NCBI GenBank assembly: GCA_002430725.1
Contig: DJCU01000008.1
Location: forward strand, 393 to 64,392
Origin: Candidatus Gottesmanbacteria bacterium UBA5942
Lineage (GTDB): Bacteria; Patescibacteriota; Microgenomatia; UBA10105; UBA927
DNA length: 64,000 nt
Direction of reading: 5' to 3'
Below are positions 12,001 to 31,612 of this stretch, piece after piece (position 1 is the stretch's first letter; each line of letters begins with the position of its first letter). A model generated the notes under the pieces. That model ran no database searches. It was not told the origin of the DNA and saw nothing but the letters and a program-made list of their open reading frames with translations. The position numbers and the translations under genes were made by a program.

Positions 12001-12740
12001 AAGGTGACCGATGCGATAGCTATGCAGTCGCGGGAGCAACAAATATTAATGCACATGTGAGTGTCGATGGCATGCCGATTAGCTGTAATGCAGAGGGAAA
12101 TGTGGTCGTTGCTGATGGGCTTAATAAACGCGTAAATGTCATTACAGGTGTCAATAATATTAAAAATCAGGTATATGACGCGTTAGCATTACTTCCTCCA
12201 GGGTTGATGAAAAAAGATTTTGAGATAGTGGTGTATCCTTCTGGCATTCTTTATGGGGATGACTTAAGTTGGCAATCACTTTGGCAGCGGGTGCTTGGTA
12301 GTGGACGAGACAATATAGGTGGTGTTGATAATCAAACGTTTCCATATCATCGGCGTATATTGCTTACCGAGCAGCAGCCAGAGTTGATGTCGTATGCAGT
12401 GATACATGAGGTAATGCACGCGTATGCGGTTGATCAGCTCACCATACCAGCGTTTGTGCCGCTTGCCGGATTTTATAATATGTTTTCAGTAGGGCAGCAT
12501 AGCAATACTCCAGTCGGATTTCACACAATGATAGGGTGTAAACCAGATGGTTCGTATGATGGTGTACCGTTTAGCGATTATCCCAATCCTGACTGCGCAG
12601 AGGAGTTTGCTGAAGAGGGTGCAGGGTACGTGTTTAAGGCGTGCGAGCTTAAGGCATACAACGAAGATCGGTATAACTACTTCAAAAACGAAGTTTTTGA
12701 TGGTCGAGAGTACCTTCCACCTCAGGGCTGCGTGAATTGA
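3..12740 (+). CDS. Giant multidomain protein, 5'-partial; contains a SecA-family motor ATPase core fused to GNAT, two GGDEF-like domains, a TM/HExxH segment and a Cys-rich C-terminal domain
   Basis: The ORF is uninterrupted from 99 to 12740 (4213 aa). I translated positions 3-98 in the same frame and found no stop, so the ORF is open to the window edge and its N-terminus lies outside the window. A 12.6 kb open frame cannot arise by chance. Domain calls are listed as separate 'other' features. The last 19 nt overlap the convergent gene 12722-13555. Confidence 0.85.
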   Translation, partial: RYAIEFSNLPYVSLTDAKKDVLTLEQKYPGQPMVSREYVLRNKDTAGKRPYRVVTVPFDVYVNDIYLANKVSAGITDLEIDIFQLGVGRLFVPISEISGTQLADYARYLEYARNPTAWRFMIEQMWKKDVFDIRSSTRQVVEFTRSLNVKNVGPLLGRAWKQTSAGITAASSRISQRFNTLGIRILPLPRVQVVDSIGTNGRTVQSSVRFDKGAQDALVADLQRTYQTEFGFIESVEKARIQSAEVTTDSLINSVIVEARTVMASGTSKEIEELALHTVIAFERLLSDKKQISSFTDAQLLAIRKAIFSKSIAIELPTGTGKTYATACVALIRALMGQPVLVSSANADLAQRDLADVGELFRPFRISSGFAAKGKSLNPSIRITYGKLSDIVAASGRALRTGVDIDINAYTLLPDEGDKSLLQEALTPIVEVEAAQGESAGLTSEEELLIVTMARNTQQMVTEGGYVIPDEQQEILSLLTPEANEKLDTYKPDAMSEEKFIEYKEFARRAAFMREGKDYLYDQYTGEITLLDNEQLADLDKKFQSGIQWALEAKHGRTSGFSVVNDEVRDKHTTMAFVRQVGSVIVFTGTAYEEIDELETYYDLEYASIPQPLWISIARQPQGTDRLRLVEYFDQASGIWLNAIIENQQGQWVIIEKDRIDYEPRLFVTEDAKLHAIQSDAEVLRNSGRAVLVASQNEASMDNIASLIPNAISISERERDEKRQNIEISGHSGNVAIGSANIGRGVNFQPDEQVQQAGGFYEMITGIMKPSTLSQVRGRVARLSPVRQGAYQARAWGATRQYLSLSDIASILGSTDARVRELAYPSGEITKNDPRYPKMVKLIREAELKIQEREKVARAAQFYADHATDEIGHVQRHLALSGFGAARQTIDWLLRRIAHETNSALKKSYLHSAEEVWKQYLAELEVLKTTAWAGAQSEKIDPEIYYQRESSTLLRNMIAVLADVVPATVIAPTIPILSDDVCMGSKANCVVEAVITERVIDAIQSNNMTDTEKIQALQAYKLTERDLPAHQLAIHDATIAIALAELDVAQGASARSAINRALQSLNARLQARPAPDDAALLERTREVLEQIRGAMPEGSSLMDRVRDWMPAPTTILQSNPILAQFAKYFTFGSNIIDTDVTTVSSIQAEVTLVATTRAEADRYRSTLKATYPRFLLETLPTGDDNQFFFVRNASGETVGFIVYQTANEVVELRNLIIDPQYQNQSYGTNVLAVLKEQFNEIRLTPVPHYVAEGVEVDDAYDALVRFYERAGFIKQTVIENRFEVEKYVWRSPSVQRLTDMRPATGRERVLDGARALERTYSPLTRSAKQAVRSAATWINDRMCGGAAFRFIRPVFAQLGSPSGNTSCPAGSVVNTIAPVAEAAMDAPVVTMMNALGFEEPIAQIPTTRGVGFFTRTMRYQGSIASEESVFGVIMEKTIDGVPTGKWILNVMATDELSLPPVNGEKTKALDAWYLTDGSEFRVGTNEYRVRVIDGMLYVYHTNPRNPQGAEGDAMVVVADLYGINPFVELADRPVARDWFEGFVKNRVIDAGLARILPVPVISDDIKIGENQNTNVVSPGRREEIVASLRRTRDPLQVLSSFLFIRMVKAGYHILIADIDSLYRANQTGVTPYGVTGDILLHDIAEALGELNREFGIDIELRVAGDTFALVSKEPLPSDMADRVKNRIQQVRGLYGGRGDIISYEPARVKVLSTRGDEWIGFSERDPSIPHTVRRERLVRIHPEVGMFFDELDASSVSQGQKEAYLQFIEEALLDPVLFTGAQDAGVESFVHRNDYLDHLVPHMIDTFGKSESDGKNAYLVRISVSGVLKLLNDRFGDAAGNVFIRHLFDRIIAVNKQLEVGDLAWYDLYRKGGDFELTIVGDEAQAQALINALTQALAGTYTEGGHVYNLQPTVVSKIIDMQTIDGQTVVDKAELEARFGAVESDLAQAEWYETVRRQTNLMFVDDSELQTALSYYDPYDKRGAVRLWKLGLVEDADVEVFKQMYVDPASQKRWYSGLFEWVYWKLPPGFRSRFASTLMPARERIRAGMLPRAKAFLTDYLVRYVAGYDRSDSVLIADRAEHTMLNFRLELERLVAEGEALQRTITPSTDDVIMRAIQSEITEISRQIDAHIRTIFTDFTDEQLRQYKIDRNIQQRLMGPASGTLVTPPTNQQFNVRGTLRNPAAADAKRVLVDELGVLTEEQLRERTQKLVTVSPLTIIKDSMFPSQENRNTYMKSLGVTRLSAFGEVIFRLVNLYSGLFERGHFDDRTGQQYVVPMTGLSALFIAAGVYVLLHLAAPPLAIVTAIAGVLMFILPAWQLITFPNAYYHELTHALNITQDKQFVSYSESQGSDLANEIFTDYFTRRVTEQSQTFFGKIAHLSYRMFGNNYGGKMSWIPLLLDELDKGEVPGTAERMLAHSYFAKPGAENDFQELLQRKLGNERAANVIAAIKTVYDAGSMSKDDLLKTNAIKNILETRVQQGNEVEATAYLQELEALVARGEALRTSILPSMTSEGRVPIEEEIAEISRQIDTLIRGANPAFDDVALRQYKIDRNIQQRLMGPASGMLMAPATPLVDQYVATPVNSVGVAKAKASKAGLMHNGVRQLADGSTMTIGGQDVIIRSTRTAVIVDGVSNSIRNDQGENYFDQEVQDEAMVRALAVYGAVLRAFDELDLDGADPSNRVGDIVTLIERHLSTIVPASSPTNRPAQTTISVHHAVQTPTGWKIVSFRIGDQSVFTVSPEEIGEVSPPNNFHTALNEMSGAEVQLVDVLEAWKALPLEMKRLYQTRTTNLPQMIEEGYAGTVDISAIPVGGFVIVGSDALRSLFADRPSLVGALHSELKGVISAQEAESRIVAFLDRYSNLYDQIDDDVSFIVFAQTPEGVLDNGVSIAASPRTLETSVGITSERPVLGEVKVDGLTLGYFSVTDTQAYLTGNTIPIWVNNKRYDPHTETHAGMASIEVGDTVTFVPKTTKNVILYVVDVDTQGHMILRHANQRPGKNGDNIDFSTESLRVVPAGSRYNYERAFAAWNVTSNEDKTAFLTAVATLIDTLPEKTIFPDGDDQIFRVTGSINRTFAQLEFDGVMREILSQLRPGESVSLRVIHPDGVVIGDTAIVKESVDVELGTITLRDDGIAEFQMGKIKRLSSRFRTENVAVPEALSYSPEQVLAVMIAALVKPSCYVDVGVQHKVYAQSKNPETVGSVCLLAARSLMSAVRSAERGQFWRSMQQWWHEQQVMWNVLLGRQREPVSFQDTLDVEPAIELEATSEAREAVIRLSEITETTRDAEFMDIINLPELSVRDAFRRQFDTDMTAFLGYMWLYGQQEGMLTAIEKQTATINFLTMLRDRYSVTLQAAQPFFYRELTEGHEQDANPADFLISDALVTLIASSPTARDVYAVWQEMAKDTNQDVRSLQENEWLVPHPFDDGKEIRVTHEETYVEVTNGDAVVRLPIDNTYHPSIQEVADSVDVLEPGIRVSLHTDGTAALFVMAYQHSIVWDDEYEIRFSTDRRGNLYKKGAKQAGKITVWPRYTEEFAEIITPPLAFDVAHINGTYFVQKMPSIRLHEGFEVMKPDGSLYSLQVGDEVSEMGVSDTYTITDAPFDWKAIGDANKWVSIYVSPLRERGFEGRIWVDAANPVIRHVSSPVDPSTENMSSVVQSIRIRIPAIVEKNKAISQAQATTTTDALNNVTQAITGVFTNPDCYAMRSEYVAYAAETTRDGTCPTWGKSPRRVVRGMRNRSERERMDADARSYVRMLILAVPPIGFLVDGAIKAGIWYVTAPPPPPVTPQCTLGSCAVNGLCPAGQQCSATGCCTQLSAYEDFVCSVDKQYLLKRTMIAPGGFSIDINASFRCLDGCVNNDCAQKAQMTFPEQCTDAMKRTPLLYGFDSNYGAMNSCLAIDDLATMSYYREFTCSTDGLSVIERATGNVVRTCLGNQTCKQSGDIADCLGPVGYVRPQNAIIDMVCQGNDVYLFDSDTQTFTQHVASCPVRGCQQGACIAYEGDRCDSYAVAGATNINAHVSVDGMPISCNAEGNVVVADGLNKRVNVITGVNNIKNQVYDALALLPPGLMKKDFEIVVYPSGILYGDDLSWQSLWQRVLGSGRDNIGGVDNQTFPYHRRILLTEQQPELMSYAVIHEVMHAYAVDQLTIPAFVPLAGFYNMFSVGQHSNTPVGFHTMIGCKPDGSYDGVPFSDYPNPDCAEEFAEEGAGYVFKACELKAYNEDRYNYFKNEVFDGREYLPPQGCVN
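800..2450 (+). other. SecA-family (DEAD motor, NBD1-PPXD-NBD2) ATPase core inside the giant ORF
   Basis: I matched motifs against E. coli and B. subtilis SecA from memory. FTDAQLLAI..IAIELPTGTGKT at nt 951-971 matches HFDVQLLGG..IAEMRTGEGKT (Walker A). GTGKTYATACVALIRALMGQPVLVSSANADLAQRD matches [35 protein letters not shown]. ITYGK matches ITYGTN. DEGDKSLLQEALTPIVEV at nt 1245 onward matches DEVDSILIDEARTPLIIS (Walker B). WALEAKHG matches QAVEAKEG. FTGTA at nt 1761-1775 matches GMTGTA. IGRGVNF at nt 2229 onward matches AGRGTDI. QVRGRVARL matches QLRGRSGRQ. Motif order and spacings (Walker A to DE about 98 aa, DE to TGTA about 172 aa) fit SecA. Confidence 0.7.
3540..3840 (+). other. GNAT-fold acetyltransferase-like domain inside the giant ORF
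   Basis: The segment VGFIVYQTANEVVELRNLIIDPQYQNQSYGTNVLAVL...YDALVRFYERAGFIKQ has a motif A-like Q-x-x-G-x-G/N and the typical C-terminal F-Y-E-R/K-x-G-F. Confidence 0.5.
4800..5080 (+). other. GGDEF-like nucleotidyl-cyclase palm domain 1 (degenerate: DID retained, GGDEF replaced by AGDTF)
   Basis: HILIADIDSLYRANQTGVTPYGVTGDILLHDIAEAL...IDIELRVAGDTFALVS aligns to the GGDEF consensus llDiDhFKxiNDtyGHxxGDxvL...RyGGDEFavl. Confidence 0.5.
5440..5720 (+). other. GGDEF-like palm domain 2 (degenerate: DxD replaced by SVS, signature reads GGDFE)
   Basis: LVRISVSGVLKLLNDRFGDAAGNVFIRHLFDRI...DLYRKGGDFELTIVGDEAQAQAL aligns to the same consensus. NDxxGxxxGN and RxGGD are retained, but the metal-binding DxD is lost. 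Confidence 0.5.
6435..6490 (+). repeat. Intragenic direct repeat copy A (56 nt)
   Basis: cgtcagtacaagattgaccggaatatccaacaacgtttgatgggccccgcaagcgg encodes RQYKIDRNIQQRLMGPASG. Copy A and copy B are 54/56 nt identical and the repeat unit is in frame (offset 1209 nt). The flanking roughly 80 aa are also similar at the protein level (..ISRQID..IR..F.D..LRQYKIDRNIQQRLMGPASG). Confidence 0.9.
6850..7010 (+). other. Predicted TM hairpin followed by HExxH motif (YYHELTHAL) in the giant ORF
   Basis: Two hydrophobic stretches, LSALFIAAGVYVLLHLAAPPLAIVTAIAGVLMFILPAW, are followed immediately by HELTH at nt 6985-6999. This resembles membrane-associated zincin signatures (M48 HELGH) and the DUF4157-type HELTHVvQ motif. 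Confidence 0.4.
7644..7699 (+). repeat. Intragenic direct repeat copy B (56 nt)
   Basis: cgtcagtacaagattgaccggaatatccaacagcgcttgatgggccccgcaagcgg has 2 mismatches to copy A. Confidence 0.9.
11340..12737 (+). other. Poly-Pro linker plus Cys-rich C-terminal domain carrying a second HExxH (IHEVMHAY at nt 12405-12419)
   Basis: A hydrophobic stretch (MLILAVPPIGFLV) is followed by APPPPPVTPQC and about 430 aa with roughly 40 Cys (for example CTLGSCAVNGLCPAGQQCSATGCC). HEVMH sits in a zincin-like context. The Cys richness suggests an extracytoplasmic, disulfide-bonded domain. Confidence 0.5.
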
Positions 12741-13564: not shown

Positions 13565-15952
13565 TTATTGCTGTTTTTTTCGTAGTGCAAAAATAAGCAA
13601 GAAAAGTGTAACGATGCCAACAACAAAAAGTAATTTTTTGGTGACTGTTGGCTGATAGGTAAATGTGATGGTGTGTTCTCCTTGTTCCTCAACCATTACC
13701 GCGGTGTAAAACGGAAATACTGCAAACGATTGCGCCTGTTTTCCGTTCACCGTTATGTGCCACGAAGGGTGAAATGACTGCCGGAGGATGACGATACAGG
13801 ATGGACAAGGTGTCGTGTTTACGATGGTCGCATGAAATTCCATGTCAGTGCTGTAGCCTTGGTTGGTAATGCGTGGTATAGCACTCGGTGTTCCTTGCGG
13901 GTTTGCGTAGCGGGGCGTTTCTGCAAATAGATTGTGGAGTGAACCGTCTGGTACTTTGTAAGTAGCCTCATCGAGCATGCGGAAGTTAGGGAGTCCTGTG
14001 GGGCGTGGATAGTTTCGGTCAAAGGTAAGTTCGGGATAGAGAAAAGCTTTCGGAGCATCTGAATGCATCCAAAGCCGTATGAGGCTTCGATAATTTGATT
14101 TATCAGCAGAAACTATCGCTGGTTTTATTCCGGTGGTGATATAGCCCATCGAGGAGTTGTATGATTGCCCGCCTGCTATGGAGTCAGGTTGTATTGTTTT
14201 ATTATTATTTTCGTTGTTTTCATTAACCGTCACCTCATAGAATTTCCATGTTGCACCGGTTTCTATAAGCTTCCAGAAGGGCTGGATTGCGTCAGATGGG
14301 AGATTAGCCGGTGTTACGACATATCGGACGTTGTAGAGCGAGTAGTGAGCGATATTTTGTTCGGAAAAGTATTGTTCGGTGTCGGAGTTAGGTGACCATG
14401 TTTCCGGCAGCCAAAGGATAACTGGAATACCATAGGTTGATAGGTGCATATATAGAGGAGTTTCTGCAATCCGGAACTCCTTGCCCCAGTTGCCCCCGCG
14501 ACCTGCAAATACTCGACCTGGTTTTTCTACCATTTTTTGAGTGAGTATGGAGAATAAACGGTCGGTATCAGCGGCATTCTTGACGTAGTTTTCGTTGGCG
14601 CGTGAGATGAGAATGTCATTGTGTGACGCGTACCGGAGGCTTTGGGGGAAAACGAAAATAACGAAAATAACGAGTATGACTAAATACGAGAACAACGAAA
14701 GTGACAGCATACGAGAGCGATATAGGCGTGAAAAATAAGAGGAGGTTGTTTGGATAAGCCAATCTATACCAGTAGCGATAAGGAAAAGTCCTGCGGTATG
14801 AACACCGACAATAAATCGAGAAATATGAAAATCATCCATGCCCGGGATAATGCTCATGAGGCTTCCCCATGTTGTACGGCCAAAATACATAAGAAGCCAG
14901 AAAGCAAAGAGAAACGCAAATGGCGTATAGCGTGAGGTAATAAGAGCGGAAAATAAGCCAACAAATACCCCAATGGTAAGAATAGGGAAGCGACCAAAAT
15001 CGAAAAGATCACCGTTTAGTAGATTTTTGAGCACTTCGCGATAGCCGAAAGAATTAAATTTCCATATACCGTCCCATACAGAAATGTTGTGATAATTACC
15101 ATCTTTCAGGATGGGAAGTATCCAGTAGCCGAGGAGCAGTCCAACAATGCCAAAAATTATTAATACACGTGTGAGCGTAGTAACAAGTTTTCTTGTTGTT
15201 TCTTTGTTCCATTCATGAGTGAGTAGAGATTGTAAAGATGGGCTAATAGCGATGATGCCTACGCTAAGAAAAGCGATGATGCCTAAGCCCAAATGTCCTG
15301 CGGTGGTAAAGCTGAGGAACAGGGTTGTATAGATATAATCTCTCCGCGTTACATTGCTCGTACATAATCGAAATGCATAAGAAAGCGCCAGAGGAAGCCA
15401 TAACATGGCAAATAGTTGGCTGGTAAGTCCGTACCCTCGCCACAGAAATGATGGGGTGTCTAAGCCATACAGTCCATCGGTTGAAAGGTGCGAGGCTATT
15501 ATTGCACCTATGCCTGCAGTGGCCATGGGAAGCCCCGCAACCCGAAGGGTTATAAATATTGAAAGGGGAAATAGAGAGAGGAGTAAATAGATGACCCAGT
15601 GATAATAGGTAAACAGTGATACCGATAGACCAATCGCTGAAAGCAGTCGGTATGTTGCTACGATGGTGATTTGGGGTATATGAGAGTAGTAGTAAGGGAG
15701 GTTATATCCCTGTGCCCAGTTTGGCACCCAGTGATCTATAAGGTAAAACGTCATGCAAAAAGGCGCAGTAATGCCAGAACACTTTTGTTGTGCATAAGAC
15801 CATATTTGGTTTGTTCTATCAACTAAAGCGAACTGGAACGTATTATCGTTTGGGTCGATGAGCGCGGTGGGTTCAGTTCGGTAAACCCAAAGGTTAAACC
15901 CTATGGCAAAGAGAACGAAGCATAGGCCAATTATTTTTTCGTAGGACTTCAT
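13565..15952 (-). CDS. YfhO-like polytopic membrane protein (GT-C-type glycosyltransferase candidate)
   Basis: It has about 12 or more predicted TM helices in the N-terminal 450 aa and a soluble C-terminal domain. The C-terminal FHPSWHITVNGKQAQSF...GEHTITFTYQP parallels YfhO-family C-termini (W.PgW.a.vdGk...G.H.v...Y.P) and also the C-terminus of ORF 24028-26058. Confidence 0.55.
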   Translation of the reverse strand: MKSYEKIIGLCFVLFAIGFNLWVYRTEPTALIDPNDNTFQFALVDRTNQIWSYAQQKCSGITAPFCMTFYLIDHWVPNWAQGYNLPYYYSHIPQITIVATYRLLSAIGLSVSLFTYYHWVIYLLLSLFPLSIFITLRVAGLPMATAGIGAIIASHLSTDGLYGLDTPSFLWRGYGLTSQLFAMLWLPLALSYAFRLCTSNVTRRDYIYTTLFLSFTTAGHLGLGIIAFLSVGIIAISPSLQSLLTHEWNKETTRKLVTTLTRVLIIFGIVGLLLGYWILPILKDGNYHNISVWDGIWKFNSFGYREVLKNLLNGDLFDFGRFPILTIGVFVGLFSALITSRYTPFAFLFAFWLLMYFGRTTWGSLMSIIPGMDDFHISRFIVGVHTAGLFLIATGIDWLIQTTSSYFSRLYRSRMLSLSLFSYLVILVIFVIFVFPQSLRYASHNDILISRANENYVKNAADTDRLFSILTQKMVEKPGRVFAGRGGNWGKEFRIAETPLYMHLSTYGIPVILWLPETWSPNSDTEQYFSEQNIAHYSLYNVRYVVTPANLPSDAIQPFWKLIETGATWKFYEVTVNENNENNNKTIQPDSIAGGQSYNSSMGYITTGIKPAIVSADKSNYRSLIRLWMHSDAPKAFLYPELTFDRNYPRPTGLPNFRMLDEATYKVPDGSLHNLFAETPRYANPQGTPSAIPRITNQGYSTDMEFHATIVNTTPCPSCIVILRQSFHPSWHITVNGKQAQSFAVFPFYTAVMVEEQGEHTITFTYQPTVTKKLLFVVGIVTLFLLIFALRKKQQ

Positions 15953-16005: not shown

Positions 16006-17856
16006 TTATGGCCAGAGCATTGGGTTTAGCCAATCTGTATGGTCATCATAGTTATTATCTCCTGCGTCTTTTGTGACAAGCCACAAATGGCGTACGCCTT
16101 TGATATCTACCTCAGCATGCTTGGGGAGGTCAAATCGCCCCATGATAGGCGACCGATGGAGAAGTTTGCCGTCTCCATAGATTTCAAATACTGCTGAGGC
16201 TTTTGTCCCTGCTTCAGTGTCTATACCGTAATCTACCGTAAATCGAGTAAATTTTCCCGCGATGTCAAATACATATTTTGAGTTTGCATGCGTCCCGATG
16301 CCATGGGTATAGAAAAGATATTGAACCGAAAGACGTGTCCATTTGTAAGGGCCGCCAAACGAGCTCTGGACAGACCTGTTTATCTGACGAGTTCCGTATG
16401 CCTGCTCGCTGATAAATGGCGAGAAAAATGTGAGTGACACCGGCTTTTTTTGGATTATTGGCATATTCATGCCAACAATTGCAGTTGTCCAAATAAGAGC
16501 TACAAGGATTAATATTTTTCTACTCGTTATTGATTGTTTTACAAGTGAAAAGAGAAATAATCCAAATAAGCCAATGAGAATCCAAGCAGTTATGAGCGTT
16601 GCCATCGGGTGTGTGAGGAGCGAGAGTAATGGAAGACCGTTTTGCGGATAATTTACGACAAGTGCAGTATGAAGGTTATAAAAATAAAATACTGAAAAGC
16701 CAGCGTATAAACTACCTAACAGTTGAATTCGTTTTGTGACGTATCGTGATCCTCCCTGGGTGACAAAAAAAGGCGACCACAAAAGGAGAAATACCGAAAG
16801 TGGGAATGCGTAGCGGTCGTGGGATTGCGTCTGGAAAAGAAAAAATGCGGCATTAGCAATAATGAGACTTTCAATGAATGTTTGGAGTATGGATGATGTG
16901 TGTGTTTTGGCTTTATCAAACAACTGGCGAACTACCGCAAAAAGGTATAGTGAGCTAAATATAGTGAGCCCTACTGTTTTTGCATTGAGTATGCCCAGCA
17001 CAGTGAGTTTATCTGAGGTGATCAGACCTCGGGCCCCTGACACAATCCACCACAGGTTGTATGCCATGAGGCTCATCCATGGGAAGTAATCGTAATTTTC
17101 GGTGAGGGAGGCAAGTACGCGATCAGCGTTTTTCGTCAGTATAAATTCTGCGTTGAGACCAAAAAATCCCAAAGCGGCACCACTTATTGCTGTCATAAGT
17201 CCGGTGTATCCCAAATGTTGCCATAGAAAGAGGAAAAAAATAGGAGCGTAAATCATGTTTTGGAGCTTGGTCATCATAGCGAGCATAAATACGACCCCCG
17301 CCCATAATGGTTGTTTTTTGAGTGCCAACATAACTGCGCCCAAAAAAATGCACACACCGAGCGAATCTACCTGTCCCCACCACGCACCATCCATAATGGA
17401 GATGGGATTAAGTAAATAAACAACCGCCAGTAATTCGTAGAATGAGAGGCCCAAGAGCGAAAAATTAACGTCAGGAAACCCAAAGCGCCCGGTTGTCGAT
17501 TTACTGCGCCTGCCGATAGAAAGGATAAACGCTGCAATGCCAAAGTCCGCGAGAATAGGCAGCATTTTACTGACGGTCAAAAATAATACGTTGGTATTGC
17601 TCCAAAACTCTTGAAAATTATGCGGGTCAGCAAAGAGTCCGTATGTCCACACTATTGCGCCTAATGTATAGGTAAATGGAGTCGGATAGTTGTTGTTGGT
17701 GAGCTTTAGTCCTTCGACCGCACCGTAGTCTACGGTTGCTAGCCCCCATGATTTCCAAAACGAAACATCAGCTTCAAATCCCGGATTAGGGATAAGGATA
17801 ATCCTGACAATTAGGGCAAGCCCAATAAACAGCAATAATCGGGTTTTGTGTGACAC
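16006..17856 (-). CDS. Polytopic GT-C-like membrane protein with C-terminal NPCBM-type carbohydrate-binding domain
   Basis: The N-terminal 450 aa are multi-TM. The C-terminal HGIGTHANSKYVFDIAGKFTRFTVDYGIDTEAG..SAVFEIYGDGKLLHRSPIMGRFD..EVDIKGVRHLWLVTKDAGDNNYDDHTDWLNPML matches the NPCBM (GH98-associated) consensus GvHAnS...F...vGvDde....V.FeVyaDGk.ly.Sgvm......v.v.v.Ga.eL.LvvtdagDg...DhadWa.a.l. Confidence 0.6.
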   Translation of the reverse strand: MSHKTRLLLFIGLALIVRIILIPNPGFEADVSFWKSWGLATVDYGAVEGLKLTNNNYPTPFTYTLGAIVWTYGLFADPHNFQEFWSNTNVLFLTVSKMLPILADFGIAAFILSIGRRSKSTTGRFGFPDVNFSLLGLSFYELLAVVYLLNPISIMDGAWWGQVDSLGVCIFLGAVMLALKKQPLWAGVVFMLAMMTKLQNMIYAPIFFLFLWQHLGYTGLMTAISGAALGFFGLNAEFILTKNADRVLASLTENYDYFPWMSLMAYNLWWIVSGARGLITSDKLTVLGILNAKTVGLTIFSSLYLFAVVRQLFDKAKTHTSSILQTFIESLIIANAAFFLFQTQSHDRYAFPLSVFLLLWSPFFVTQGGSRYVTKRIQLLGSLYAGFSVFYFYNLHTALVVNYPQNGLPLLSLLTHPMATLITAWILIGLFGLFLFSLVKQSITSRKILILVALIWTTAIVGMNMPIIQKKPVSLTFFSPFISEQAYGTRQINRSVQSSFGGPYKWTRLSVQYLFYTHGIGTHANSKYVFDIAGKFTRFTVDYGIDTEAGTKASAVFEIYGDGKLLHRSPIMGRFDLPKHAEVDIKGVRHLWLVTKDAGDNNYDDHTDWLNPMLWP

Positions 17857-20984: not shown

Positions 20985-20993
20985 AAGAAAAAG

Positions 20994-21022: not shown

Positions 21023-21038
21023 GAAGAGGTAGGGGGCA

Positions 21039-24044: not shown

Positions 24045-26058
24045 GCGTATGATGATTCCTGTTATTGGTTTTATCCTCGTGACGATGATTGTATTTGGGA
24101 AAGCGCTATTTCCTGCAGCTGACTTCATGATTTATGGCGATGATATCCACAGGTCATATTATTTTTTCCGTGAGTTTTTTAATTATTGGATACGCCAGGG
24201 AGTATTTCCGTGGTGGAATCCGTACATTTTTGGAGGTCAGCCGTTTATTGCTGACCCAATCGTCAATATTTGGTATCCAATAAATTGGCTATTCATGTTG
24301 ATCCCCTTAAATATCGCGTATGCGTGGCATATTGCGCTACATATTGTGTGGGCGATGACTGGGATGTACATGCTAACAGTTAATAGTAAACAGTTAACTG
24401 TTAACAGTAAGTTGGCGGCGTGGGTGAGTGGGGTAGTATTTGGGTTGTCAGGATTTTTTGCAGCGCGCACCTGGTCAGGGCACGTTGATGTCATTGCTGC
24501 CGCAAGCTGGATGCCTTGGGTGGTGTGGGCAATCGATAGAGCTATGATGTTGGGCGATAAAAAACGAATTATCGTGGCTTCGGGGATTTTTGCTCTTCAG
24601 TTGTTTTCAGGGTATCAAACCATGGCATTTATGACGGTCATCGTTGTCGGATTTGTCGCATTGGCTCGAAGCTATGGAGCAAAAAGCGTGAAGCCCATGT
24701 TGTTGGCAATACAGACGGGAGCTATCGGCATTGGACTAGCGGCTTTTCATCTGGTGCCGGTTTCAGAGTTTTTTCATGCGAGCATCCGTACGTTTCGTTT
24801 GCCGTATTCATGGGCTTCGTATGGTGCTTGGGGTTGGCAAAGTCTTATACAAATGCTCAACCCGTTTTTTTTCGGAGACCAGTATACCTATCGTGGTTTA
24901 GCGCCTAATTTTGGGGAGCACAGTGCGTTTGTGGGGGTTATTGGGTTGTTGCTCGCCATGATAGGCGTGGTGGTGAGTGTTAAAAATAAACGGGCGATCG
25001 TGGGAATAGCGTTTGTTGTGCTTGCTTTTTTTGGTGTATGGGTGTCTTTGGCATCCAATGCGCCGATCGACATACAGCGTGTGATGTGGGAGATCATACC
25101 GATGTATCGGTATATACGAATACCAGCGCGCCATCTTATCTTAGTGGTTTTTAGTTTATCTTTTTTGAGTGGTGTTGGATGTCTCTATCTCCTCATGCAT
25201 AGTAAAAAATGGCGTAAGTGGGTAAGCGCACTGATTGTCGGGCTTGTTGCTATCGAAATGGTTTTGTTTTCTCGTCATTTTATCGAACTTCAACCGATAC
25301 CTGAACGCCGTCATGACCACGAGCTAGTTGAGAGACTCGTCCAGGATGAGCAACCGTACCGGACTCTCCAGAACTTTGGAGTGTGGCTGTCCGCACGCGA
25401 TGCGTTGGATTTTGATAGCAGCATGTCTTATGGGATTTATTCTGCCACAGGATACAGTCCTTCTATATTGCGATCGTATTTTGAATATATTGCTCGTGCT
25501 ACCGGCAAAAGCGGGGAGCAGGCGATGCTGTCACATGACGTGCAAGTGCCATATATGTCCGCAGCAAATGCAGGGAGCATCGATTTTTTGAATATTAAAT
25601 ATATTATCGTTCCTCCAGAGCATGATCCTTTTTCTGGTAACGAACGATATAAGCTCGTGTGGGATGATGATCGCAATAAGTATCGGTTGTATGAGAATAC
25701 GAGTGTATTACCCCGATTTTTCTTGAGCGATTCGTCATGTGGAAGTGTCAACGTGTCTTCGTATACTCCCAATAAAGTCGTGTTGTCAGTTTCCAGTACG
25801 TGTGCAGCAACGTTACGAAGTTCGGAGGTTTGGTATCCCGGATGGACTGCTACCATCGATGGTAAAAAAACAAGTATTAATAAGGAAAACGATACGTTTC
25901 GAACACTTTTTATTCAACCCGGTAATCACACCATCGTTTATGAATTTCGCCCGACAATATTTCTTTTTGGCGGAATTATCAGTTTGTTTACGGGAAGCAT
26001 GCTTGCGTTATGGTGGAAAAAGCCGATTATGGACGTTGTTCCCGCCAGTAAGGGATGA
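24028..26058 (+). CDS. YfhO-family membrane protein (GT-C glycosyltransferase candidate)
   Basis: The N-terminal IYGDDIHRSYYFFREFFNYWIRQGVFPWWNPYIFGGQPFIAD matches the YfhO N-terminal signature (GDD, hydrophobic stretch, lPlWnP..f.G.P). It has more than 12 TM helices. The C-terminal WYPGWTATIDGKKTSI..FRTLFIQPGNHTIVYEFRP matches the YfhO C-terminus. Confidence 0.65.
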   Translation: MCIFHERMMIPVIGFILVTMIVFGKALFPAADFMIYGDDIHRSYYFFREFFNYWIRQGVFPWWNPYIFGGQPFIADPIVNIWYPINWLFMLIPLNIAYAWHIALHIVWAMTGMYMLTVNSKQLTVNSKLAAWVSGVVFGLSGFFAARTWSGHVDVIAAASWMPWVVWAIDRAMMLGDKKRIIVASGIFALQLFSGYQTMAFMTVIVVGFVALARSYGAKSVKPMLLAIQTGAIGIGLAAFHLVPVSEFFHASIRTFRLPYSWASYGAWGWQSLIQMLNPFFFGDQYTYRGLAPNFGEHSAFVGVIGLLLAMIGVVVSVKNKRAIVGIAFVVLAFFGVWVSLASNAPIDIQRVMWEIIPMYRYIRIPARHLILVVFSLSFLSGVGCLYLLMHSKKWRKWVSALIVGLVAIEMVLFSRHFIELQPIPERRHDHELVERLVQDEQPYRTLQNFGVWLSARDALDFDSSMSYGIYSATGYSPSILRSYFEYIARATGKSGEQAMLSHDVQVPYMSAANAGSIDFLNIKYIIVPPEHDPFSGNERYKLVWDDDRNKYRLYENTSVLPRFFLSDSSCGSVNVSSYTPNKVVLSVSSTCAATLRSSEVWYPGWTATIDGKKTSINKENDTFRTLFIQPGNHTIVYEFRPTIFLFGGIISLFTGSMLALWWKKPIMDVVPASKG

Positions 26059-27700
26059 TGCAGGGATCTTCACCTTGCCACCATGGTTGTTGGCGAGACG
26101 TTTGATTGTTTGTGCGGTTATCAAATATCCATGTAAGCGGAGCGCCTCTCGTAGAAATCGTATGCACAGGTGTATGGTGGAGTAGATATTCATACGCATA
26201 AAAGAACCGGTAAAAGAATGATTGACGATTTAATACAATAACAAAATCAGATTCGTCATAACCGTATCGGTTAAGTTGTGGCAGGAGGTCAGGACGGAGG
26301 TATTGAGCGGCTACCGCAGCGGACATGACGATGTGCACTTTTGCGTTTTGTGGCGCGTGTTTATTTACCCAGAGAACAGCTGCTTTTTGGCTAGTGCCCC
26401 AGTAATCAAGATCGTATTTACCCATCGCGCCCCTTATCCCTCCGATGAGTTCGTTAAAGTAACTTATTTGGTACGGATGATGTTGGTATATCGCAAGCAA
26501 TAAATACAGTACTGCGGATATAAGAACGAAGAGTCCGATGTGTCGGTTGACGCGTTTTTTGAACCAAAGGTATATTTCATTCATGCCAATGCTTGCAAGC
26601 GCTGCGATGGGAAAAAGCACTTCTTCAAAATGACGGATGCCATCTATCACCCCAATACTCGGCACAATATACCGGAGAAGGGGAATACATAGCCAAAGAA
26701 CGAAAAGTAGCCCAATACGATGGTATTTTTTTTGCGCGATAACACAACACGAGCCTGCTATCCCAGAAAAAAGTATGACAAGTGGCGTGGTAATAGTGAG
26801 ATACCAGAGCGGATAATACCAGGGAACAGTAGAGCCAGAACAGTACCACGTACCGTTTAACAATACTTCTATATTATTTGTTCCTACACCAAAGGTGAGG
26901 AATGCGTGCCGGAGTTGGTCAATTGGATTTGGCCAAAATACCCACCAGAGAAGAAACGCAGCAATCGGAGAAAAGATGAAATACAAAAGAATTCTTTTGT
27001 AGTTAATAGTTGTCTTGTGTCGTTGAAATAGCCATAGGAAGCCTAGCCACGAGGCAAAAACAATGGGAATAAATACACTGTTTATTTTCACATTAAATGC
27101 CACTGCAAAGGCCGTCACAGCCCAAAACATATCGATTATTCGTTGATGTGTCACAAGACGCCATAAGAGCCATATATTGATGGCAAATATGACTGCAGAA
27201 GGAATGTCTTTCATGTTATTGTGGAGGTCTCCAAAAAATCGGGGAGTGAGCCCGAGAAGTAGCGCACTTATAAGCGCGACACGAGGGTGTATTGCCTCTT
27301 TTATAAACGTAAAAATTACAAAAATTCCCATAACTCCCCATACGATAATTGGGAGGTGATAGGCGCTGTCAGCAGGAAGGATTGCGAGTGATTTGTGTAG
27401 TAAGAGGTAGGTGGCGACAGGGGGAATACTCATGAGCGCGCCATAGGGAAGCGTCCATGCGCGTCTCGGGTCTGGTTCGACAAATGGTAGGTTGCGCGGT
27501 TCAAGTTGTTGTGGCTCAAAGCCTAAGAGCTTTCCGCCTCCAAAAAAGTGAAAGTGAAAATCCCACGTAAAACCGTAATGGTTGATTGTGAGGAGATGGA
27601 CAACAAGGAATACGAGCGTCATGAAAATGCCCGCGTGTTGGCGTATCCAGGAGAATGCCCGCGTGAGTATTTTATTTTTTGATAGCATAAACGTCTGCAA
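26027..27700 (-). CDS. ArnT/PMT-like (GT39/GT83-type) polytopic membrane glycosyltransferase candidate
   Basis: It has about 12 TM helices and an acidic/aromatic first loop (TWDFHFHFFGG...EPDPRRAW). Its overall architecture parallels ORFs 29311-30837 and 37413-39005. Confidence 0.5.
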   Translation of the reverse strand: MQTFMLSKNKILTRAFSWIRQHAGIFMTLVFLVVHLLTINHYGFTWDFHFHFFGGGKLLGFEPQQLEPRNLPFVEPDPRRAWTLPYGALMSIPPVATYLLLHKSLAILPADSAYHLPIIVWGVMGIFVIFTFIKEAIHPRVALISALLLGLTPRFFGDLHNNMKDIPSAVIFAINIWLLWRLVTHQRIIDMFWAVTAFAVAFNVKINSVFIPIVFASWLGFLWLFQRHKTTINYKRILLYFIFSPIAAFLLWWVFWPNPIDQLRHAFLTFGVGTNNIEVLLNGTWYCSGSTVPWYYPLWYLTITTPLVILFSGIAGSCCVIAQKKYHRIGLLFVLWLCIPLLRYIVPSIGVIDGIRHFEEVLFPIAALASIGMNEIYLWFKKRVNRHIGLFVLISAVLYLLLAIYQHHPYQISYFNELIGGIRGAMGKYDLDYWGTSQKAAVLWVNKHAPQNAKVHIVMSAAVAAQYLRPDLLPQLNRYGYDESDFVIVLNRQSFFYRFFYAYEYLLHHTPVHTISTRGAPLTWIFDNRTNNQTSRQQPWWQGEDPCIIPYWREQRP

Positions 27701-29285
27701 TTTCGCCGTGAAATGCCAGCGATAAAAAGGAATAGTGTGAGATGGCTGCTGAAGATTTTGATGAGACTAATACGTGGGAAATTGAGTGATCCTTCATAAA
27801 TTGTAGCGCTTGGGTTTCGTTCATGTTCCCATAAAAAAATTTATTTCGTAAATCTTGTTTTGTTTGTGTATAGAGCGTATGGACAGGATGTCCGGTAAAT
27901 GATCGTAGTCCTGTGAGGATGGGTATGATGACGTCATACGGCAGTGTCGGGTCTGTGATGACGAGATGGTTTTTGTCGTTTCGGGTGTGTTGGAGAAACA
28001 TAAACGTTTCCATCATTGAATAAGGTACGTGGTTAAGCTGCCTTATCGCTGTGTCAGTTTGAAGAGGACGTGTTCGTGCTTCTACCTGCGTGAAGATAGC
28101 TGGAAGAGTAAAAGAAAGGTACAGGACGAGCAGGAGCATACTGATCGGTAGCTTAGAAAGAGGTTGGGGGACATGTGTTTGTAGGGTGCGTGTTATGTAT
28201 GAGTATCCGATTGAAGCAACAATCGGAAGAATTGCGATTGATGCAGGCGAGAGCCATCGAACAGGTGTCGTTCCAAGAAGTTTAGGTATTGGGCTAAAAA
28301 ACACCACGAGAGAAAGAAGTCCAAATATACCCAATAGACCGCCTAGCGGGGTAATCTTATGAAAAAATAATCGTATGCCAAATGGGATAAATAAAACGAT
28401 TGGTCCGACAGCCAGTATAAATTGCCATATGCTGACTGAGACGAGCTGACCATCTTCCCACAGTTTTGCACTCACGAGTATTGGTTGACGCGCAAATTCT
28501 GCATTTGTAAGGAGTGCTCCGATAAGTGATGGTAACGCAAGAGCGAAACCAATCACTCCATATTGTGCCAATTTTTCTTTTCGTATGTGGGTAAGAAGGT
28601 AGAGAAGTGCAGTACTGTTTACAAGGAGCATTTGTGGTGGGGTTGCAATAGACGCGAGAAATGAATAGATCGCCAGAGCTATCAGTCGTATAGCAAGCGG
28701 GAGGATAGGTTTTTTGCGAAACGAGGTAATAAGCGTGGAAAATATCCATAGTACTGCAATCACAAGCAGTGTTTGTAATACTTGATGCGGGACGCCTCCA
28801 AGACGATTGAGCGCGGGTGTGGGGGAAAACCAAAATTCTCCTAACCCCGGAAAATTTGATGCGGTAATGATAAATATAAAGGTGATAAGACGAATGTGAA
28901 GTTGTCCAGGTATTATGGTCGGAATAAGTCGCCACCAGAAAGCGAGGAGTAGTGCGGTAAGGAAAAATAGACTCCCGTTATATACGATAAACGGATCAAT
29001 TCCCGCGCTACTTATTTTTCCCAGTATCGTATAAAACCAGTATATCCACGTTGGTGGCAAAGGCTCGTTGGTGTACATGTGATTGGTAAAAAACCACGCG
29101 CCATTTGCTCCCTGAAATATATGAGAAACATAAAGGAAATAATCTGCAAAATAGTGTGCGATGCCTGTAAATAATTCTCCGGGTTTGTTGTTGGCGGCTT
29201 CAGTGATGACATGCCATGAATTTGCGATAAGCATCGCAAATCCTATACCAATGGCGGCGAGGGACTCTCGAGATATTTTTTTCAT
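27672..29285 (-). CDS. Polytopic membrane protein (paralog family, GT-C-like)
   Basis: Multi-TM protein that shares the C-terminal soluble motif with ORFs 18755-20302 and 22371-24044. Confidence 0.55.
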   Translation of the reverse strand: MKKISRESLAAIGIGFAMLIANSWHVITEAANNKPGELFTGIAHYFADYFLYVSHIFQGANGAWFFTNHMYTNEPLPPTWIYWFYTILGKISSAGIDPFIVYNGSLFFLTALLLAFWWRLIPTIIPGQLHIRLITFIFIITASNFPGLGEFWFSPTPALNRLGGVPHQVLQTLLVIAVLWIFSTLITSFRKKPILPLAIRLIALAIYSFLASIATPPQMLLVNSTALLYLLTHIRKEKLAQYGVIGFALALPSLIGALLTNAEFARQPILVSAKLWEDGQLVSVSIWQFILAVGPIVLFIPFGIRLFFHKITPLGGLLGIFGLLSLVVFFSPIPKLLGTTPVRWLSPASIAILPIVASIGYSYITRTLQTHVPQPLSKLPISMLLLVLYLSFTLPAIFTQVEARTRPLQTDTAIRQLNHVPYSMMETFMFLQHTRNDKNHLVITDPTLPYDVIIPILTGLRSFTGHPVHTLYTQTKQDLRNKFFYGNMNETQALQFMKDHSISHVLVSSKSSAAISHYSFLSLAFHGEIADVYAIKK

Positions 29286-29310
29286 TGTGTCACAATGGTG
29301 TCATTATCCC

Positions 29311-30837
29311 ATGCAACTAAAACAATTTCGAGTGTCGCTTCCAGCTCTTCTTAGCTTGTTTTCTATTAGCGTGCTTATATGGTTACTTTGGACGACACTT
29401 CAGGTGTCAATTGTACGATACTTTGATGCGGATGAACTTGCATATCTTCATTGGGCGCATAACGTGTATAGTGGTGCGCTACCGTATCGGGATTTTTTGT
29501 TCTTTGTGCCACCCGGGTTTTTATATGCCTTGGCTGTGCTTTATGTTTTTGTAAACGGTACCGCTGTGCTTGTTGCAGGGAGAGTATTTTCATTCCTCAT
29601 ACTGATAGGTATAGTCGTTGTGACGTGCTGGATGTTTTGGCGTATGCGTAAAAGTTGGGCTGCATGGCTTGTGGGAGTAGTGTTGATTGCCTTGCCGCTG
29701 CCTGCAGATAAATTGTTGGAAATCAGACCGGATAATTTGGCGATGCTCCTGTCGTTATTAGGGTTAGCGTGCATTCTCGAAGGATTTTCTCACAAAAAGC
29801 ATGTATTTGTTTGGGGAGCAGGCGGATTATTGTATGGCTTGTCATTGTTAACTCTTCCGAAAACATTACCTCAGGTTGTCGTGTCGGGAATACTTATCGT
29901 GGTGTGGGCATATTGGGAAAAAGAACACAAGTCGGATCGTATTCGATCGCTCATGTGGTTTATTGGGGGTCTCCTTATTCCAATAGGAGTATTTGGAATG
30001 TTGTATGCAATGCTTTTGGGTAACAGTGAGCATCTTACTACCATGTGGTATTCGCTCACCACGTTGCCATTTGAGGTAGGACGTCTCGGAGAAATGTTTG
30101 GGATGCGACCAGACTTATTTTTTTACCCCAATAGTATTTATTACGGTACTGAAGGCTGGAATACTGCAATACTCGTCAATCATTTGTTATGGCTTACCGG
30201 GTTGCTGACTGGATGTGTGCGATTGGTTGCTCCAGCATTACTTCAGGGAAAAAGAGGGATATTTCCAGAATTATTGATAGCAGGAACATGGTTTTTTTAT
30301 TTGTTGATGTTTATGTACGGATATCCGCTACGTCACGCGCAATATTTAATCCCGATAGCGATATTTGTCGCATGGTTTGTGGCAGATTTCGTTAACTCGA
30401 TGTGGGTATACGCTTCCCGGACGAGAACAGGAAGCAGAGTGTTTGCTGTTTTCTTCATGGCAGGGCTTGCAGGGTTATCATTGGTGCAAAGTGAGGTAGC
30501 CGCATCGAAATTGCTTATGACAAATCGTGAGGATAAGGCGGTGGTTGAACGCGTGCTTCACATTGTTCCTAAAGATGCGTTTGTGTTTGATCTGGTCGGG
30601 TCGACACTTTATTACAAAGATCCATATTATGTGTGTTGTATGCCATACGGTCAATGGAGCACCTATCAATCCAGGCCGCTTCCAAGCCTTCCTGAAGCGT
30701 TGGAACGAACCAATACTCAGTTTATTTATCAGGGGAGACTTATGCGAACGACGACCTTGCCGGAGGCAGATCAAGCGTATATTCGTACGCATTATATTCC
30801 GTATCAGACAGATCCGAGTTTGCTTATTCGTAAGTAA
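29311..30837 (+). CDS. ArnT/PMT-like polytopic membrane glycosyltransferase candidate
   Basis: The ORF track begins at 29161, but the first 50 codons overlap the divergent gene. I moved the start to the ATG at 29311 (MQLKQFRVSLPALLSLFSISVLIWLLW), which gives a 25-nt divergent intergenic gap. ADELAYLHWAHNV..YRDFLFFVPPGF is a GT-C-like loop 1. Confidence 0.5.
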   Translation: MQLKQFRVSLPALLSLFSISVLIWLLWTTLQVSIVRYFDADELAYLHWAHNVYSGALPYRDFLFFVPPGFLYALAVLYVFVNGTAVLVAGRVFSFLILIGIVVVTCWMFWRMRKSWAAWLVGVVLIALPLPADKLLEIRPDNLAMLLSLLGLACILEGFSHKKHVFVWGAGGLLYGLSLLTLPKTLPQVVVSGILIVVWAYWEKEHKSDRIRSLMWFIGGLLIPIGVFGMLYAMLLGNSEHLTTMWYSLTTLPFEVGRLGEMFGMRPDLFFYPNSIYYGTEGWNTAILVNHLLWLTGLLTGCVRLVAPALLQGKRGIFPELLIAGTWFFYLLMFMYGYPLRHAQYLIPIAIFVAWFVADFVNSMWVYASRTRTGSRVFAVFFMAGLAGLSLVQSEVAASKLLMTNREDKAVVERVLHIVPKDAFVFDLVGSTLYYKDPYYVCCMPYGQWSTYQSRPLPSLPEALERTNTQFIYQGRLMRTTTLPEADQAYIRTHYIPYQTDPSLLIRK

Positions 30838-31611: not shown

Positions 31612-31612
31612 T

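Follow-up and report, generated by a model that had tools for sequence, protein, structure and literature searches.

Nine GT-C-type membrane protein genes in a conserved, candidate cell-envelope glycan locus of a Gottesmanbacteria genome

What could a small groundwater bacterium build with nine genes for large polytopic membrane proteins, set within about 26 kb of its genome? The question is raised by a stretch of 64,000 nucleotides (hereafter the window) from Candidatus Gottesmanbacteria bacterium UBA5942, contig DJCU01000008.1. The host belongs to the tiny-genome groundwater Gottesmanbacteria, within the candidate phyla radiation (CPR). With genomes of about 1 Mb, CPR bacteria, or Patescibacteria, lead a life attached to other cells, and to our knowledge almost nothing is known about their surface chemistry. 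An original prediction, made from the letters of the window, had taken the nine proteins for glycosyltransferases (GT) of the GT-C type serving a surface glycosylation programme. Every line of profile, structure and orthologue evidence collected here points to GT-C and supports that reading, and none of them suggests a transporter or another non-GT family. It is well supported that all nine proteins have GT-C evidence, of unequal strength, and we lean towards a shared role in building an envelope glycan.

Nine polytopic genes and their products

A scan for open reading frames (ORFs) reproduced all the proposed genes at their coordinates. Eight of them occupy 14,307 of the 18,116 bp (79%) of the interval 12722-30837, while the ninth lies outside it, at 37413-39005. 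Six genes are on the minus strand: 13565-15952 (795 aa), a putative YfhO-type GT-C whose large extracytoplasmic domain precedes a C-terminal transmembrane anchor; 16006-17856 (616 aa), in which a membrane domain of the GT-C_B type is fused with an NPCBM/CBM51 module, predicted to be extracytoplasmic, for carbohydrate binding; 18755-20302 (515 aa), which we call F1, a paralogue in a GT-C family (the F family) absent from curated libraries; 26027-27700 (557 aa), of the PMT_2 family (ArnT/PMT-like); 27672-29285 (537 aa), paralogue F3 and the member of its family modelled with AlphaFold; and 37413-39005 (530 aa), a probable PMT_2-like GT-C and the weakest assignment of the nine. The plus strand carries 22371-24044 (557 aa), paralogue F2; 24028-26058 (676 aa), a YfhO-family GT-C; and 29311-30837 (508 aa from M51), a seemingly divergent PMT_2-like GT-C and the first gene of a plus-strand run that continues with the small glycosyltransferase gene GT2a. 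The F2 gene and the YfhO gene 24028 overlap by 17 bp and form an operon. Hereafter each protein is named by the first coordinate of its gene.

The mechanical ORF of the eighth gene is 29161-30837 (558 aa). This longer version was rejected, since orthologues are called from an internal methionine corresponding to M51, where the family alignment also begins, and since it would overlap the divergent gene 27672-29285. The frame upstream of M51 (29161-29310) is kept at the amino-acid level in relatives, as SRDIFFIVSQWCHYP, which is probably due to the conserved 5' end, coding for the N-terminus, of 27672-29285 on the opposite strand. The start codons of these two divergent genes are only 25 bp apart, therefore both promoters must sit within coding sequence.

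Concerning topology, a Kyte-Doolittle scan gave 6-11 hydrophobic segments per protein under a strict threshold; relaxing it raised the count to 9-12 in all nine, within the 8-13 helices of GT-C enzymes, and AlphaFold2 (AF2) models contain about 11 transmembrane helices in 27672 and about 12 in 16006. The earlier count of at least 10 helices in each protein is therefore approximately right, though not exact.

GT-C enzymes carry a DxD-type catalytic or metal-binding motif shortly after the first transmembrane helix (PMC8035078). Our alignments reveal such a conserved acidic motif in the first loop of all nine proteins, with a near-invariant acidic residue, in each case including an Asp, about 20-40 residues past the first helix in every family. 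The residues are D33 and D36 in 13565 (conserved in 120 of 121 sequences), E28 and D30 in 16006 (invariant, 35/35), D39 of the GDD motif in 24028 (17/17), D47 in 26027 (24/24), D89, D91 and E92 of RYFDADE in 29311 (invariant, 25/25), and D42 and D46 in 37413 (4/4, only four sequences being available). In the F family the position is D48 of 27672, within HYFADYFLY, found in all 34 close and all 32 distant members; the corresponding invariant Asp of 18755 is D46, within HHPGDYFYY. From the topology, the loop that bears this Asp would face outward.

Scanned directly against Pfam and NCBIfam, no more than three or four of the nine proteins received a name, and the others needed scans extended transitively through orthologues. 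Membership of a Pfam family was found directly for two proteins, by transitivity for three and below threshold for one, and the F family fits no curated family. No transporter family was matched by the nine proteins in any Pfam or NCBIfam search.

The clearest YfhO protein is 24028, which exceeds the Pfam gathering threshold for PF09586 (65.4 bits, cut-off 28.5) and also matches DUF6044 (27.8 bits) and, weakly, the NCBIfam models PgfM1/PgfM2 (8.4e-6; 24 bits against a cut-off of 1400). It had been paired with 13565 as YfhO-like on the strength of shared terminal motifs. These motifs are literal in 24028 (GDD, PWWNP and WYPGWTATIDGK) but only degenerate in 13565 (DPNDN, DHWVPNW and HPSWHITVNGK..GEHTITF); that the two proteins are related is nevertheless borne out by BLASTP of the C-terminus (E 0.002) and by hhalign of the two families (96.5%). 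The 13565 protein of the window has no Pfam match itself. Of the 120 orthologues listed (45-60% identity), however, about 40 have PF09586 and two bear the name YfhO in their source records, and we regard 13565 as a putative YfhO member by transitivity only. Its terminal transmembrane segment lies at about residue 772, and 24028 likewise has a large extracytoplasmic region and then a final C-terminal helix. The families of 24028 and 26027 are also linked to each other by hhalign (91.7%).

PMT_2 (PF13231, related to GT39 and GT83) is matched above threshold by 26027 (42.8 bits, cut-off 26.1). The 29311 protein has no Pfam match of its own, and PMT_2 is found in 4 of its 25 orthologues (best 1.8e-7), by which it may be classed as a divergent PMT_2-type GT-C. 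The 37413 protein stays below the same cut-off (18.9 bits, E 0.0019, model positions 3-149 of 160), as do its orthologues, all four of which match PMT_2 sub-threshold (best 6.9e-4), so that it is probably a PMT_2-like GT-C. Profile searches of the PDB with the 29311 and 37413 alignments returned noise only. By hhalign, 16006, 29311 and 37413 are not linked to other families (below 25%); the alignments of 16006 and 37413 hold only 3-4 sequences, and 16006 would fail also because it belongs to a different class, GT-C_B.

The 16006 protein consists of a membrane domain (about residues 1-465) and an NPCBM/CBM51 module (about 484-614), and its AF2 model has a mean predicted local distance difference test score (pLDDT) of 81. 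The module matches PF08305 (NPCBM) at 108 bits. A profile search of the PDB with 16006 found the CBM51 structures 7js4 (6e-30) and 2vmg (2e-20), only the CBM51 part being matched, and Foldseek aligned the modelled module with 2vmh and 2vmg (about 1e-8, TMt 0.81). For the membrane domain the best Foldseek matches are ALG6 (6snh; 8e-4, TMt 0.59) and GPI-mannosyltransferase I (9wno; 2e-3, TMt 0.61), and no PimE structure is among the matches listed. GT87 is not matched by the protein of the window in Pfam; among the matches listed, PF09594 (GT87) occurs in 4 of 120 orthologues, and several orthologues are named 'Gpi18-like mannosyltransferase' by JGI (COG5542). Judged from the model, 16006 is an enzyme of the ALG6/PIG-M type (GT-C_B), putatively GT87/Gpi18-like, and does not belong to the ArnT/PMT class. 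The description of the remaining proteins as ArnT/PMT-like therefore suits 26027, 29311 and, weakly, 37413, but not 16006, whose carbohydrate-binding module had been missed.

The three proteins 18755 (F1), 22371 (F2) and 27672 (F3) had been grouped by a common C-terminal motif. The family is real, and the motif is literal in 22371 and 27672 (GH...FFxGNMxExQA..FM; GH..FFSGNMSEAQARDFM in 22371) but degenerate in 18755 (GHPLL..x..FTGALTDTELQSFL...THV). The homology is not limited to the C-terminal domain: 18755 and 27672 are 27% identical over 503 aa (BLASTP E 5e-32), 22371 and 27672 align at E 6e-7 and the third pair at 5e-4, and hhalign aligns about 500 columns in each of the three pairs with a profile-profile probability of 100%. 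By sequence, then, F1, F2 and F3 are full-length paralogues. The motif lies within a conserved C-terminal alpha/beta domain (about residues 419-537), and D48, Y52, R161 (within NRLGGVPHQ), P166 and G465, in 27672 numbering, are invariant in the family. A fainter link joins the F family to the PMT_2 protein 26027 (hhalign probability 72-79%).

No Pfam or NCBIfam model matched F1, F2 or F3 except, below its cut-off of 29.5 bits, Tmemb_170 in 18755 (17.5 bits). The 108 close homologues of 27672 are unnamed and none has a precomputed Pfam domain; of 30 distant members only a single one matches Pfam, at a borderline level (LpxB, E 0.0096), and for ten distant members a cluster look-up yielded neither names nor taxonomy. 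A profile search covering 1.84 billion representatives nevertheless found 4,458 representative clusters at E <= 1e-3, of which 834 were at E <= 1e-30. The F family is thus a large GT-C family not covered by curated libraries. In reference genomes we found 31 loci with F-family genes, all of Patescibacteria type, and literature searches on GT-C, Patescibacteria, Gottesmanbacteria and CPR glycosylation gave nothing specific to the locus or to this family.

The GT-C fold was examined on the predicted models of two proteins, 16006 and 27672. The latter is modelled with high confidence (pLDDT 93.2; predicted TM-score, pTM, 0.92), and its top 20 Foldseek matches in the PDB are all GT-C structures (STT3, AftA, AglB, PglB, DPY19, ArnT), of class GT-C_A, with E from 3e-8 to 2e-4 and TM-scores of 0.40-0.59 normalised to the query. 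After these there is a gap to E >= 0.1, where transporters and receptors appear at TM-scores of about 0.1; a transporter identity for 27672 was rejected for this reason. F1 and F2 are predicted to take the same fold through their profile homology to 27672. The best structural matches are the oligosaccharyltransferases (OSTs) STT3, AglB and PglB (GT66; TM-score 0.50-0.59 normalised to the query, E 3e-8 to 1.8e-5), with which the F3 model shares an arrangement of about 11 transmembrane helices and then a soluble C-terminal alpha/beta domain. However, the matched chains exceed the F proteins (515-557 aa) by about 100-340 residues, and the sequence-profile search of the PDB with the F-family alignment returned only noise and no OST sequence. 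The family was not classed as an OST, the likeness being at fold level only (10-14% identity; the WWDYG motif was not searched for).

Inheritance and variability of the gene cassette

The ORFs of 34 related loci, fetched with flanks of at most 10 kb, were each labelled by their best BLAST match. The order GT2b - DegT - acetyltransferase - GT2a - 29311-type - F3 - PMT_2 - (slot) - YfhO - (methyltransferase) - F2 - cupin - 222-aa hypothetical - (225-aa hypothetical) - F1 - 275-aa hypothetical - 16006-type - 13565-type recurs in about 20 genomes, which are metagenome-assembled genomes (MAGs) of Gottesmanbacteria, down to about 40% protein identity. A core of seven or eight GT-C genes is thus inherited as a block. 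Nine membrane enzymes of the same superfamily within 26 kb, in an order kept in about 20 other genomes, are not a chance arrangement. The named homologues of three proteins, and the 31 reference loci, are assigned to 'Candidatus Gottesmanbacteria', 'Candidatus Woesebacteria' or 'Patescibacteria group bacterium'. Some related loci come from MAGs labelled 'uncultured Gammaproteobacteria' yet have the same gene order, therefore these labels are probably wrong.

The original prediction spoke of an expansion that might vary between strains. The nine genes are real, but the expansion is not recent: F1, F2 and F3 each have their own positional orthologues, to about 40% identity, therefore the duplications are ancient, and distant loci carry tandem pairs of F genes. 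As to variation, the core is conserved and the expectation is only weakly borne out, variability being confined to one replaced allele, one extra gene and one insertion slot.

The allele is that of 29311-30837. Over 17.8-36.2 kb the window is 67-87% identical in nucleotides to locus L001 (on the 1.23-Mb contig JASNZD010000001.1), which with L003 represents the nearest of the more distant genomes (73-92% protein identity), but inside 29365-30848 the identity falls from 70-87% in the flanks to 53-62%, with sharp edges. The L001 counterpart of the gene is L001 8449-9975. The 29311 protein is 53% identical to those of L001, L004 and L006, which are 57-61% identical among themselves (L001 and L004, 61%), and is an outgroup to the three, whereas the remaining genes all place the window clearly as sister to L001. 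Compared with the nearest relative, the sequence is that of an allele which appears replaced or sharply diverged. A contig from another sample, 97.6% identical to the window over 25321-31499, has the same allele as the window.

The extra gene encodes the second DegT aminotransferase (36233-37435). The syntenic loci L001 and L003 lack it, which marks it as accessory, and its product may change which sugar is made. At the slot, between the PMT_2 and YfhO genes, the window has no gene, but eight of the related loci, L004 and L006 among them, carry one or two additional polytopic genes there. Several of these match PMT_2 or PTPS_related (PF10131), and by their sequences GT-C-like genes have been gained and lost at this one site. 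The nine GT-C genes and the sugar-tailoring genes take up more than 26 kb of the window, with more glycosyltransferase genes downstream, and the cassette is kept across the whole clade, therefore its product should be important.

Candidate pathway, its acceptor and known systems

The LmbE deacetylase and the sugar-epimerase cupin first noticed beside the polytopic genes were both confirmed. The former, of the PIG-L/LmbE de-N-acetylase family (12722-13555, minus strand; PF02585, 89.2 bits; a weak BshB1 match), has one transmembrane segment near residue 8 and is the last gene of a long minus-strand run. The cupin (21766-22353, minus) belongs to the dTDP-4-dehydrorhamnose 3,5-epimerase/isomerase family (PF00908, dTDP_sugar_isom, 47 bits), the RmlC model scoring far below its cut-off; its orthologue is called at 183 aa and the true start is probably about 12 codons downstream.

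Other tailoring and donor genes lie in the plus-strand run. GT2a (30874-31611; PF00535, 90.6 bits), a small soluble family 2 glycosyltransferase (GT2) of 245 aa, is encoded directly 3' of the GT-C gene 29311-30837; its top NCBIfam model is PgfS (63 bits against a cut-off of 500), and its further matches include PpgS, AglJ, ArnC and GT2 models that do not act on lipid carriers. A hexapeptide acetyltransferase of the WcaF family (Hexapep) follows from 31613, within the block 30874-32146. The block 32613-36225 contains a first DegT aminotransferase from 32613 (DegT, 299.9 bits), WecE-like, which scores 368 bits with the dTDP-4-amino-4,6-dideoxygalactose (dTDP-Fuc4N) transaminase model (cut-off 375); GT2b from 33703, a GT2 with three C-terminal hydrophobic segments, at 275, 310 and 334; a methyltransferase from 34736; and GT2c from 35449, with ArnC as best NCBIfam model (60.9 bits) and matches also to AglJ and a dolichyl-phosphate-hexose transferase. 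The second DegT (DegT, 392 bits; LegC-family model, 326 bits) is LegC/PseC-like.

From the observed gene content, the family and fold assignments, the conserved Asp and the synteny we infer a single pathway, with the following donor lipid, sugars, topology and acceptor. Nucleotide sugars would be tailored in the cytoplasm by the WecE-like 4-aminotransferase, the hexapeptide acetyltransferase, the cupin epimerase/isomerase, the methyltransferase and the second DegT, and the sugars made probably include a derivative of a 4-amino-6-deoxyhexose. GT2a, GT2c and possibly GT2b would then load single sugars onto polyprenyl phosphate, where deacetylation by the PIG-L enzyme may unmask an amino sugar. 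After being flipped by a flippase encoded outside the window, the lipid-linked sugars would be transferred by the nine GT-C-fold enzymes to acceptors at the outer face of the membrane, each enzyme probably making a different linkage or using a different acceptor, with the conserved Asp of the first external loop as predicted catalytic or metal-binding residue.

The region would thus be a conserved locus for a cell-envelope glycan, in which a few lipid-linked donors supply many extracytoplasmic transferases, and this is the reading we find somewhat probable. As its activity we prefer the stepwise building or decoration of a glycan polymer or lipoglycan, on the pattern of mycobacterial LM, lipoarabinomannan (LAM) and arabinogalactan or of teichoic-acid glycosylation in Gram-positive bacteria, to protein glycosylation. 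A glycan acceptor is favoured because the nine GT-C enzymes share two or three candidate donor synthases, because the whole set is inherited together, and because one of the enzymes (16006) carries a sugar-binding CBM51 module.

The proposed logic is the same as in the multi-component transmembrane glycosylation systems of Gram-positive bacteria (CsbB/GtcA/YfhO, GtlA/GtlB, YkcC/YkcB and the Csd pairs), in which a GT-A/GT2 enzyme supplies a C55-P-sugar, whose sugar is transferred outside the membrane by a polytopic GT-C annotated as YfhO, PMT_2 or 'no Pfam domain' (PMC8035078). The locus likewise has YfhO-type (24028, 13565) and PMT_2-type (26027, 29311) proteins, and a GT2 gene beside a GT-C gene, a pairing typical of the known systems (PMC8035078). 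It differs from them because it holds nine GT-C genes in one place and not isolated GT-A/GT-C pairs, because the window has no GtrA-type flippase, and because its host is a CPR bacterium.

A second likeness is with the mycobacterial and corynebacterial assembly by PimE, other GT87 enzymes, MptA-C, AftA-D and EmbA-C, which uses decaprenyl-P-arabinose and polyprenyl-P-mannose. There, as is predicted here, a polymer grows step by step on the outside of the membrane through many GT-C enzymes that draw on one or two lipid-linked monosaccharide donors, and in AftD, as in 16006, a carbohydrate-binding module is attached to a GT-C (PMC8035078). Structurally the F family has AftA among its best matches (8if8, E 8e-8), and 16006 putatively falls in the GT87/Gpi18-like group. 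However, beyond the fold no similarity to these enzymes can be detected in sequence, the window has its genes in a cluster whereas the mycobacterial ones are dispersed in the genome, and no donor pathway for arabinose or mannose was identified in the locus, whose tailoring genes point to sugars of the 4-amino-6-deoxyhexose type.

The amino-sugar pathways of the ArnT type (ArnB/ArnC/ArnD/ArnT, FlmF2/NaxD/FlmK of Francisella, LgmA-C of Bordetella) combine a DegT aminotransferase, a GT2 polyprenyl-phosphate transferase, a deacylase or deacetylase for which the lipid-linked sugar is the substrate, and a transferase of the GT-C type. The locus offers a DegT (32613), GT2c with ArnC as its best model, PIG-L (12722) and PMT_2-type GT-C proteins, and ArnT structures match the F3 model at about 1e-4. 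Unlike those pathways, its deacetylase is of the PIG-L family and not ArnD or NaxD, and the scores are far under the equivalog cut-offs. CPR bacteria are, moreover, generally regarded as monoderm, and the host most likely has no lipid A acceptor.

Several points weigh against an envelope glycan made in this way. Of the nine proteins in the window, five are themselves matched by no profile above its threshold, and the assignment of 37413 is based on sub-threshold matches alone. On the donor side the NCBIfam scores of the GT2 proteins are all far under the equivalog cut-offs (5-10-fold for GT2a and GT2c), so that GT2a and GT2c resemble polyprenyl-phosphate synthases at family level only, and no ORF of 80-200 aa with at least three hydrophobic segments, as would be expected for a GtrA-type flippase, is present in the window, although the flippase gene is unlinked in several known systems too (PMC8035078). 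The window also contains pilin-like genes and two Wzy_C proteins, compatible with protein or pilin acceptors.

Among the other explanations, the best surviving is protein O-glycosylation, which we hold to be unlikely. PMT_2/YfhO-type enzymes would transfer polyprenyl-phosphate sugars to Ser/Thr of secreted proteins, after the model of the actinobacterial PMT/Pmt and the streptococcal PgfM1/PgfM2, and the targets could be the pilin-like proteins encoded at 51106-52935 and a surface protein of 2189 aa with Laminin_G repeats. The weak match of 24028 to PgfM1/PgfM2 and PgfS as best model of GT2a fit this idea, but both scores are tiny beside their cut-offs; the PMT_2 matches fit it as well, but the PMT_2 and YfhO families also hold many enzymes that modify polysaccharides and teichoic acids (PMC8035078). 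Pilin-like genes, Wzy_C/O-antigen-ligase-like genes and the large surface protein do occur within 25 kb; the pilin genes, however, are 20 kb away, beyond the flanks compared in relatives, and the CBM51 module argues for a glycan acceptor at least for 16006.

We give still less credence to a set of independent decoration modules, in which each GT-C with its own GT2 would add one side-chain sugar to a different envelope polymer, peptidoglycan-linked or lipoteichoic-acid-like, in the manner of CsbB/GtcA/YfhO, the turnover of modules leading to antigenic or phage-receptor variation. The adjacency of 29311-30837 and 30874-31611 as a GT-A/GT-C pair would agree with this (framework of PMC8035078), but there are two or three candidate donor GT2 genes for nine GT-C genes and no GtrA flippase gene adjacent. 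Similarly, the differing GT-C content of relatives at the PMT_2/YfhO slot and the replaced 29311-30837 allele with its sharp boundaries speak for turnover, but the core is inherited as a block, unlike freely exchangeable modules. That some of the nine, especially 37413 and the F family, are non-GT polytopic proteins (transporters, lipid-carrier recyclers, polymerases or ligases) is very improbable, for although the scarcity of above-threshold profile matches, the sub-threshold score of 37413 and the empty PDB profile searches for the F, 29311 and 37413 families would allow it, the 27672 model matches 20 GT-C structures at E <= 2e-4 with transporters far behind, the acidic residue past the first helix is conserved in every family, and no search matched a transporter family.

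Returning to a shared envelope glycan, we can only tentatively suggest a more specific form of it, in which the F family, as a distinct GT-C family, would act with the co-inherited YfhO, PMT_2 and GT87-CBM51 enzymes as a dedicated assembly line, in an ultra-small and host-dependent cell, for a lipoglycan or wall polymer of the CPR envelope. It would be the functional counterpart of LAM and arabinogalactan synthesis in mycobacteria. The polymer could mediate attachment to the host cell and serve as a phage receptor, and the latter role, if true, would explain the allele replacement at 29311-30837.

The most noteworthy parts of the locus are the uncurated F family and the fusion of GT-C_B with CBM51. 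The former fills a gap in the curated databases, and a profile or CAZy family built on it would improve the annotation of thousands of 'hypothetical' membrane proteins; the latter is a tidy case of an acceptor-binding module on a GT-C. A known superfamily and a known pathway logic are thereby extended to a poorly studied lineage, and current understanding is not overturned.

Flanking genes and other features of the window

Three hypothetical genes are interspersed with the GT-C genes on the minus strand. The first, for a soluble protein of 275 aa (17892-18719), lies inside the operon and has no Pfam match and no PDB sequence match; it is 97% identical to its L001 orthologue, compared with 73-82% for the neighbouring genes, and such strong conservation suggests an essential partner or enzyme of the pathway. 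The other two lie between the cupin and F1 genes (20307-21707) and encode a soluble protein of 225 aa and one of 222 aa with a single N-terminal transmembrane segment, both without Pfam match; the gene for the 222-aa protein is syntenic in 12 loci, that for the 225-aa protein in 4.

Upstream of the ninth polytopic gene, and overlapping it, is a family 4 glycosyltransferase (GT4, GT-B) gene at 39002-40204 on the minus strand (Glycos_transf_1, 24.6 bits, just sub-threshold), syntenic in L001, L003 and L004, and a further GT4 gene starts at 44096. At 46103-48141 on the minus strand a radical SAM/SPASM gene adjoins a split Alg13/Alg14-like GT28 pair (Glyco_tran_28_C, Alg14), with more GT2 and GT4 genes nearby, therefore the glycan locus reaches at least 51 kb.

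The two polytopic Wzy_C/O-antigen-ligase-like proteins are encoded at 41711-43192 (plus strand) and 49007-51040 (minus strand), and adjoin the three type IV pilin-like genes with an N_methyl motif at 51106-52935 (plus strand). Together these genes may form a module for pilin or polymer ligation. In relatives, polytopic proteins of 650-670 aa are encoded beside GT2b; one of them matches Wzy_C and several others have C-terminal TPR repeats.

Farther on, the 2189-aa protein (54612-61181, minus strand) contains five Laminin_G_3 (concanavalin-like lectin) repeats and an Ig-like Rha78A_N domain, and is followed by an ORF of 798 aa (61183-63579, minus strand) without Pfam match; both products are probably large surface proteins. 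At the other end of the window a giant ORF of 4213 aa (99-12740, plus strand), with SecA_DEAD/DEAD helicase-like, GNAT and weak GGDEF-like segments, overlaps the convergent PIG-L gene by 19 bp at its 3' end. Its product was considered as a glycosylation target and rejected, these domains being of cytoplasmic type.

Scans of the 64-kb window for tRNA genes and Rfam families were both empty. The GC content is about 0.42-0.50, and the GC skew is positive (about +0.1 to +0.25) in all 2-kb bins, regardless of the coding strand, with the exception of 58001-60000 (-0.01).

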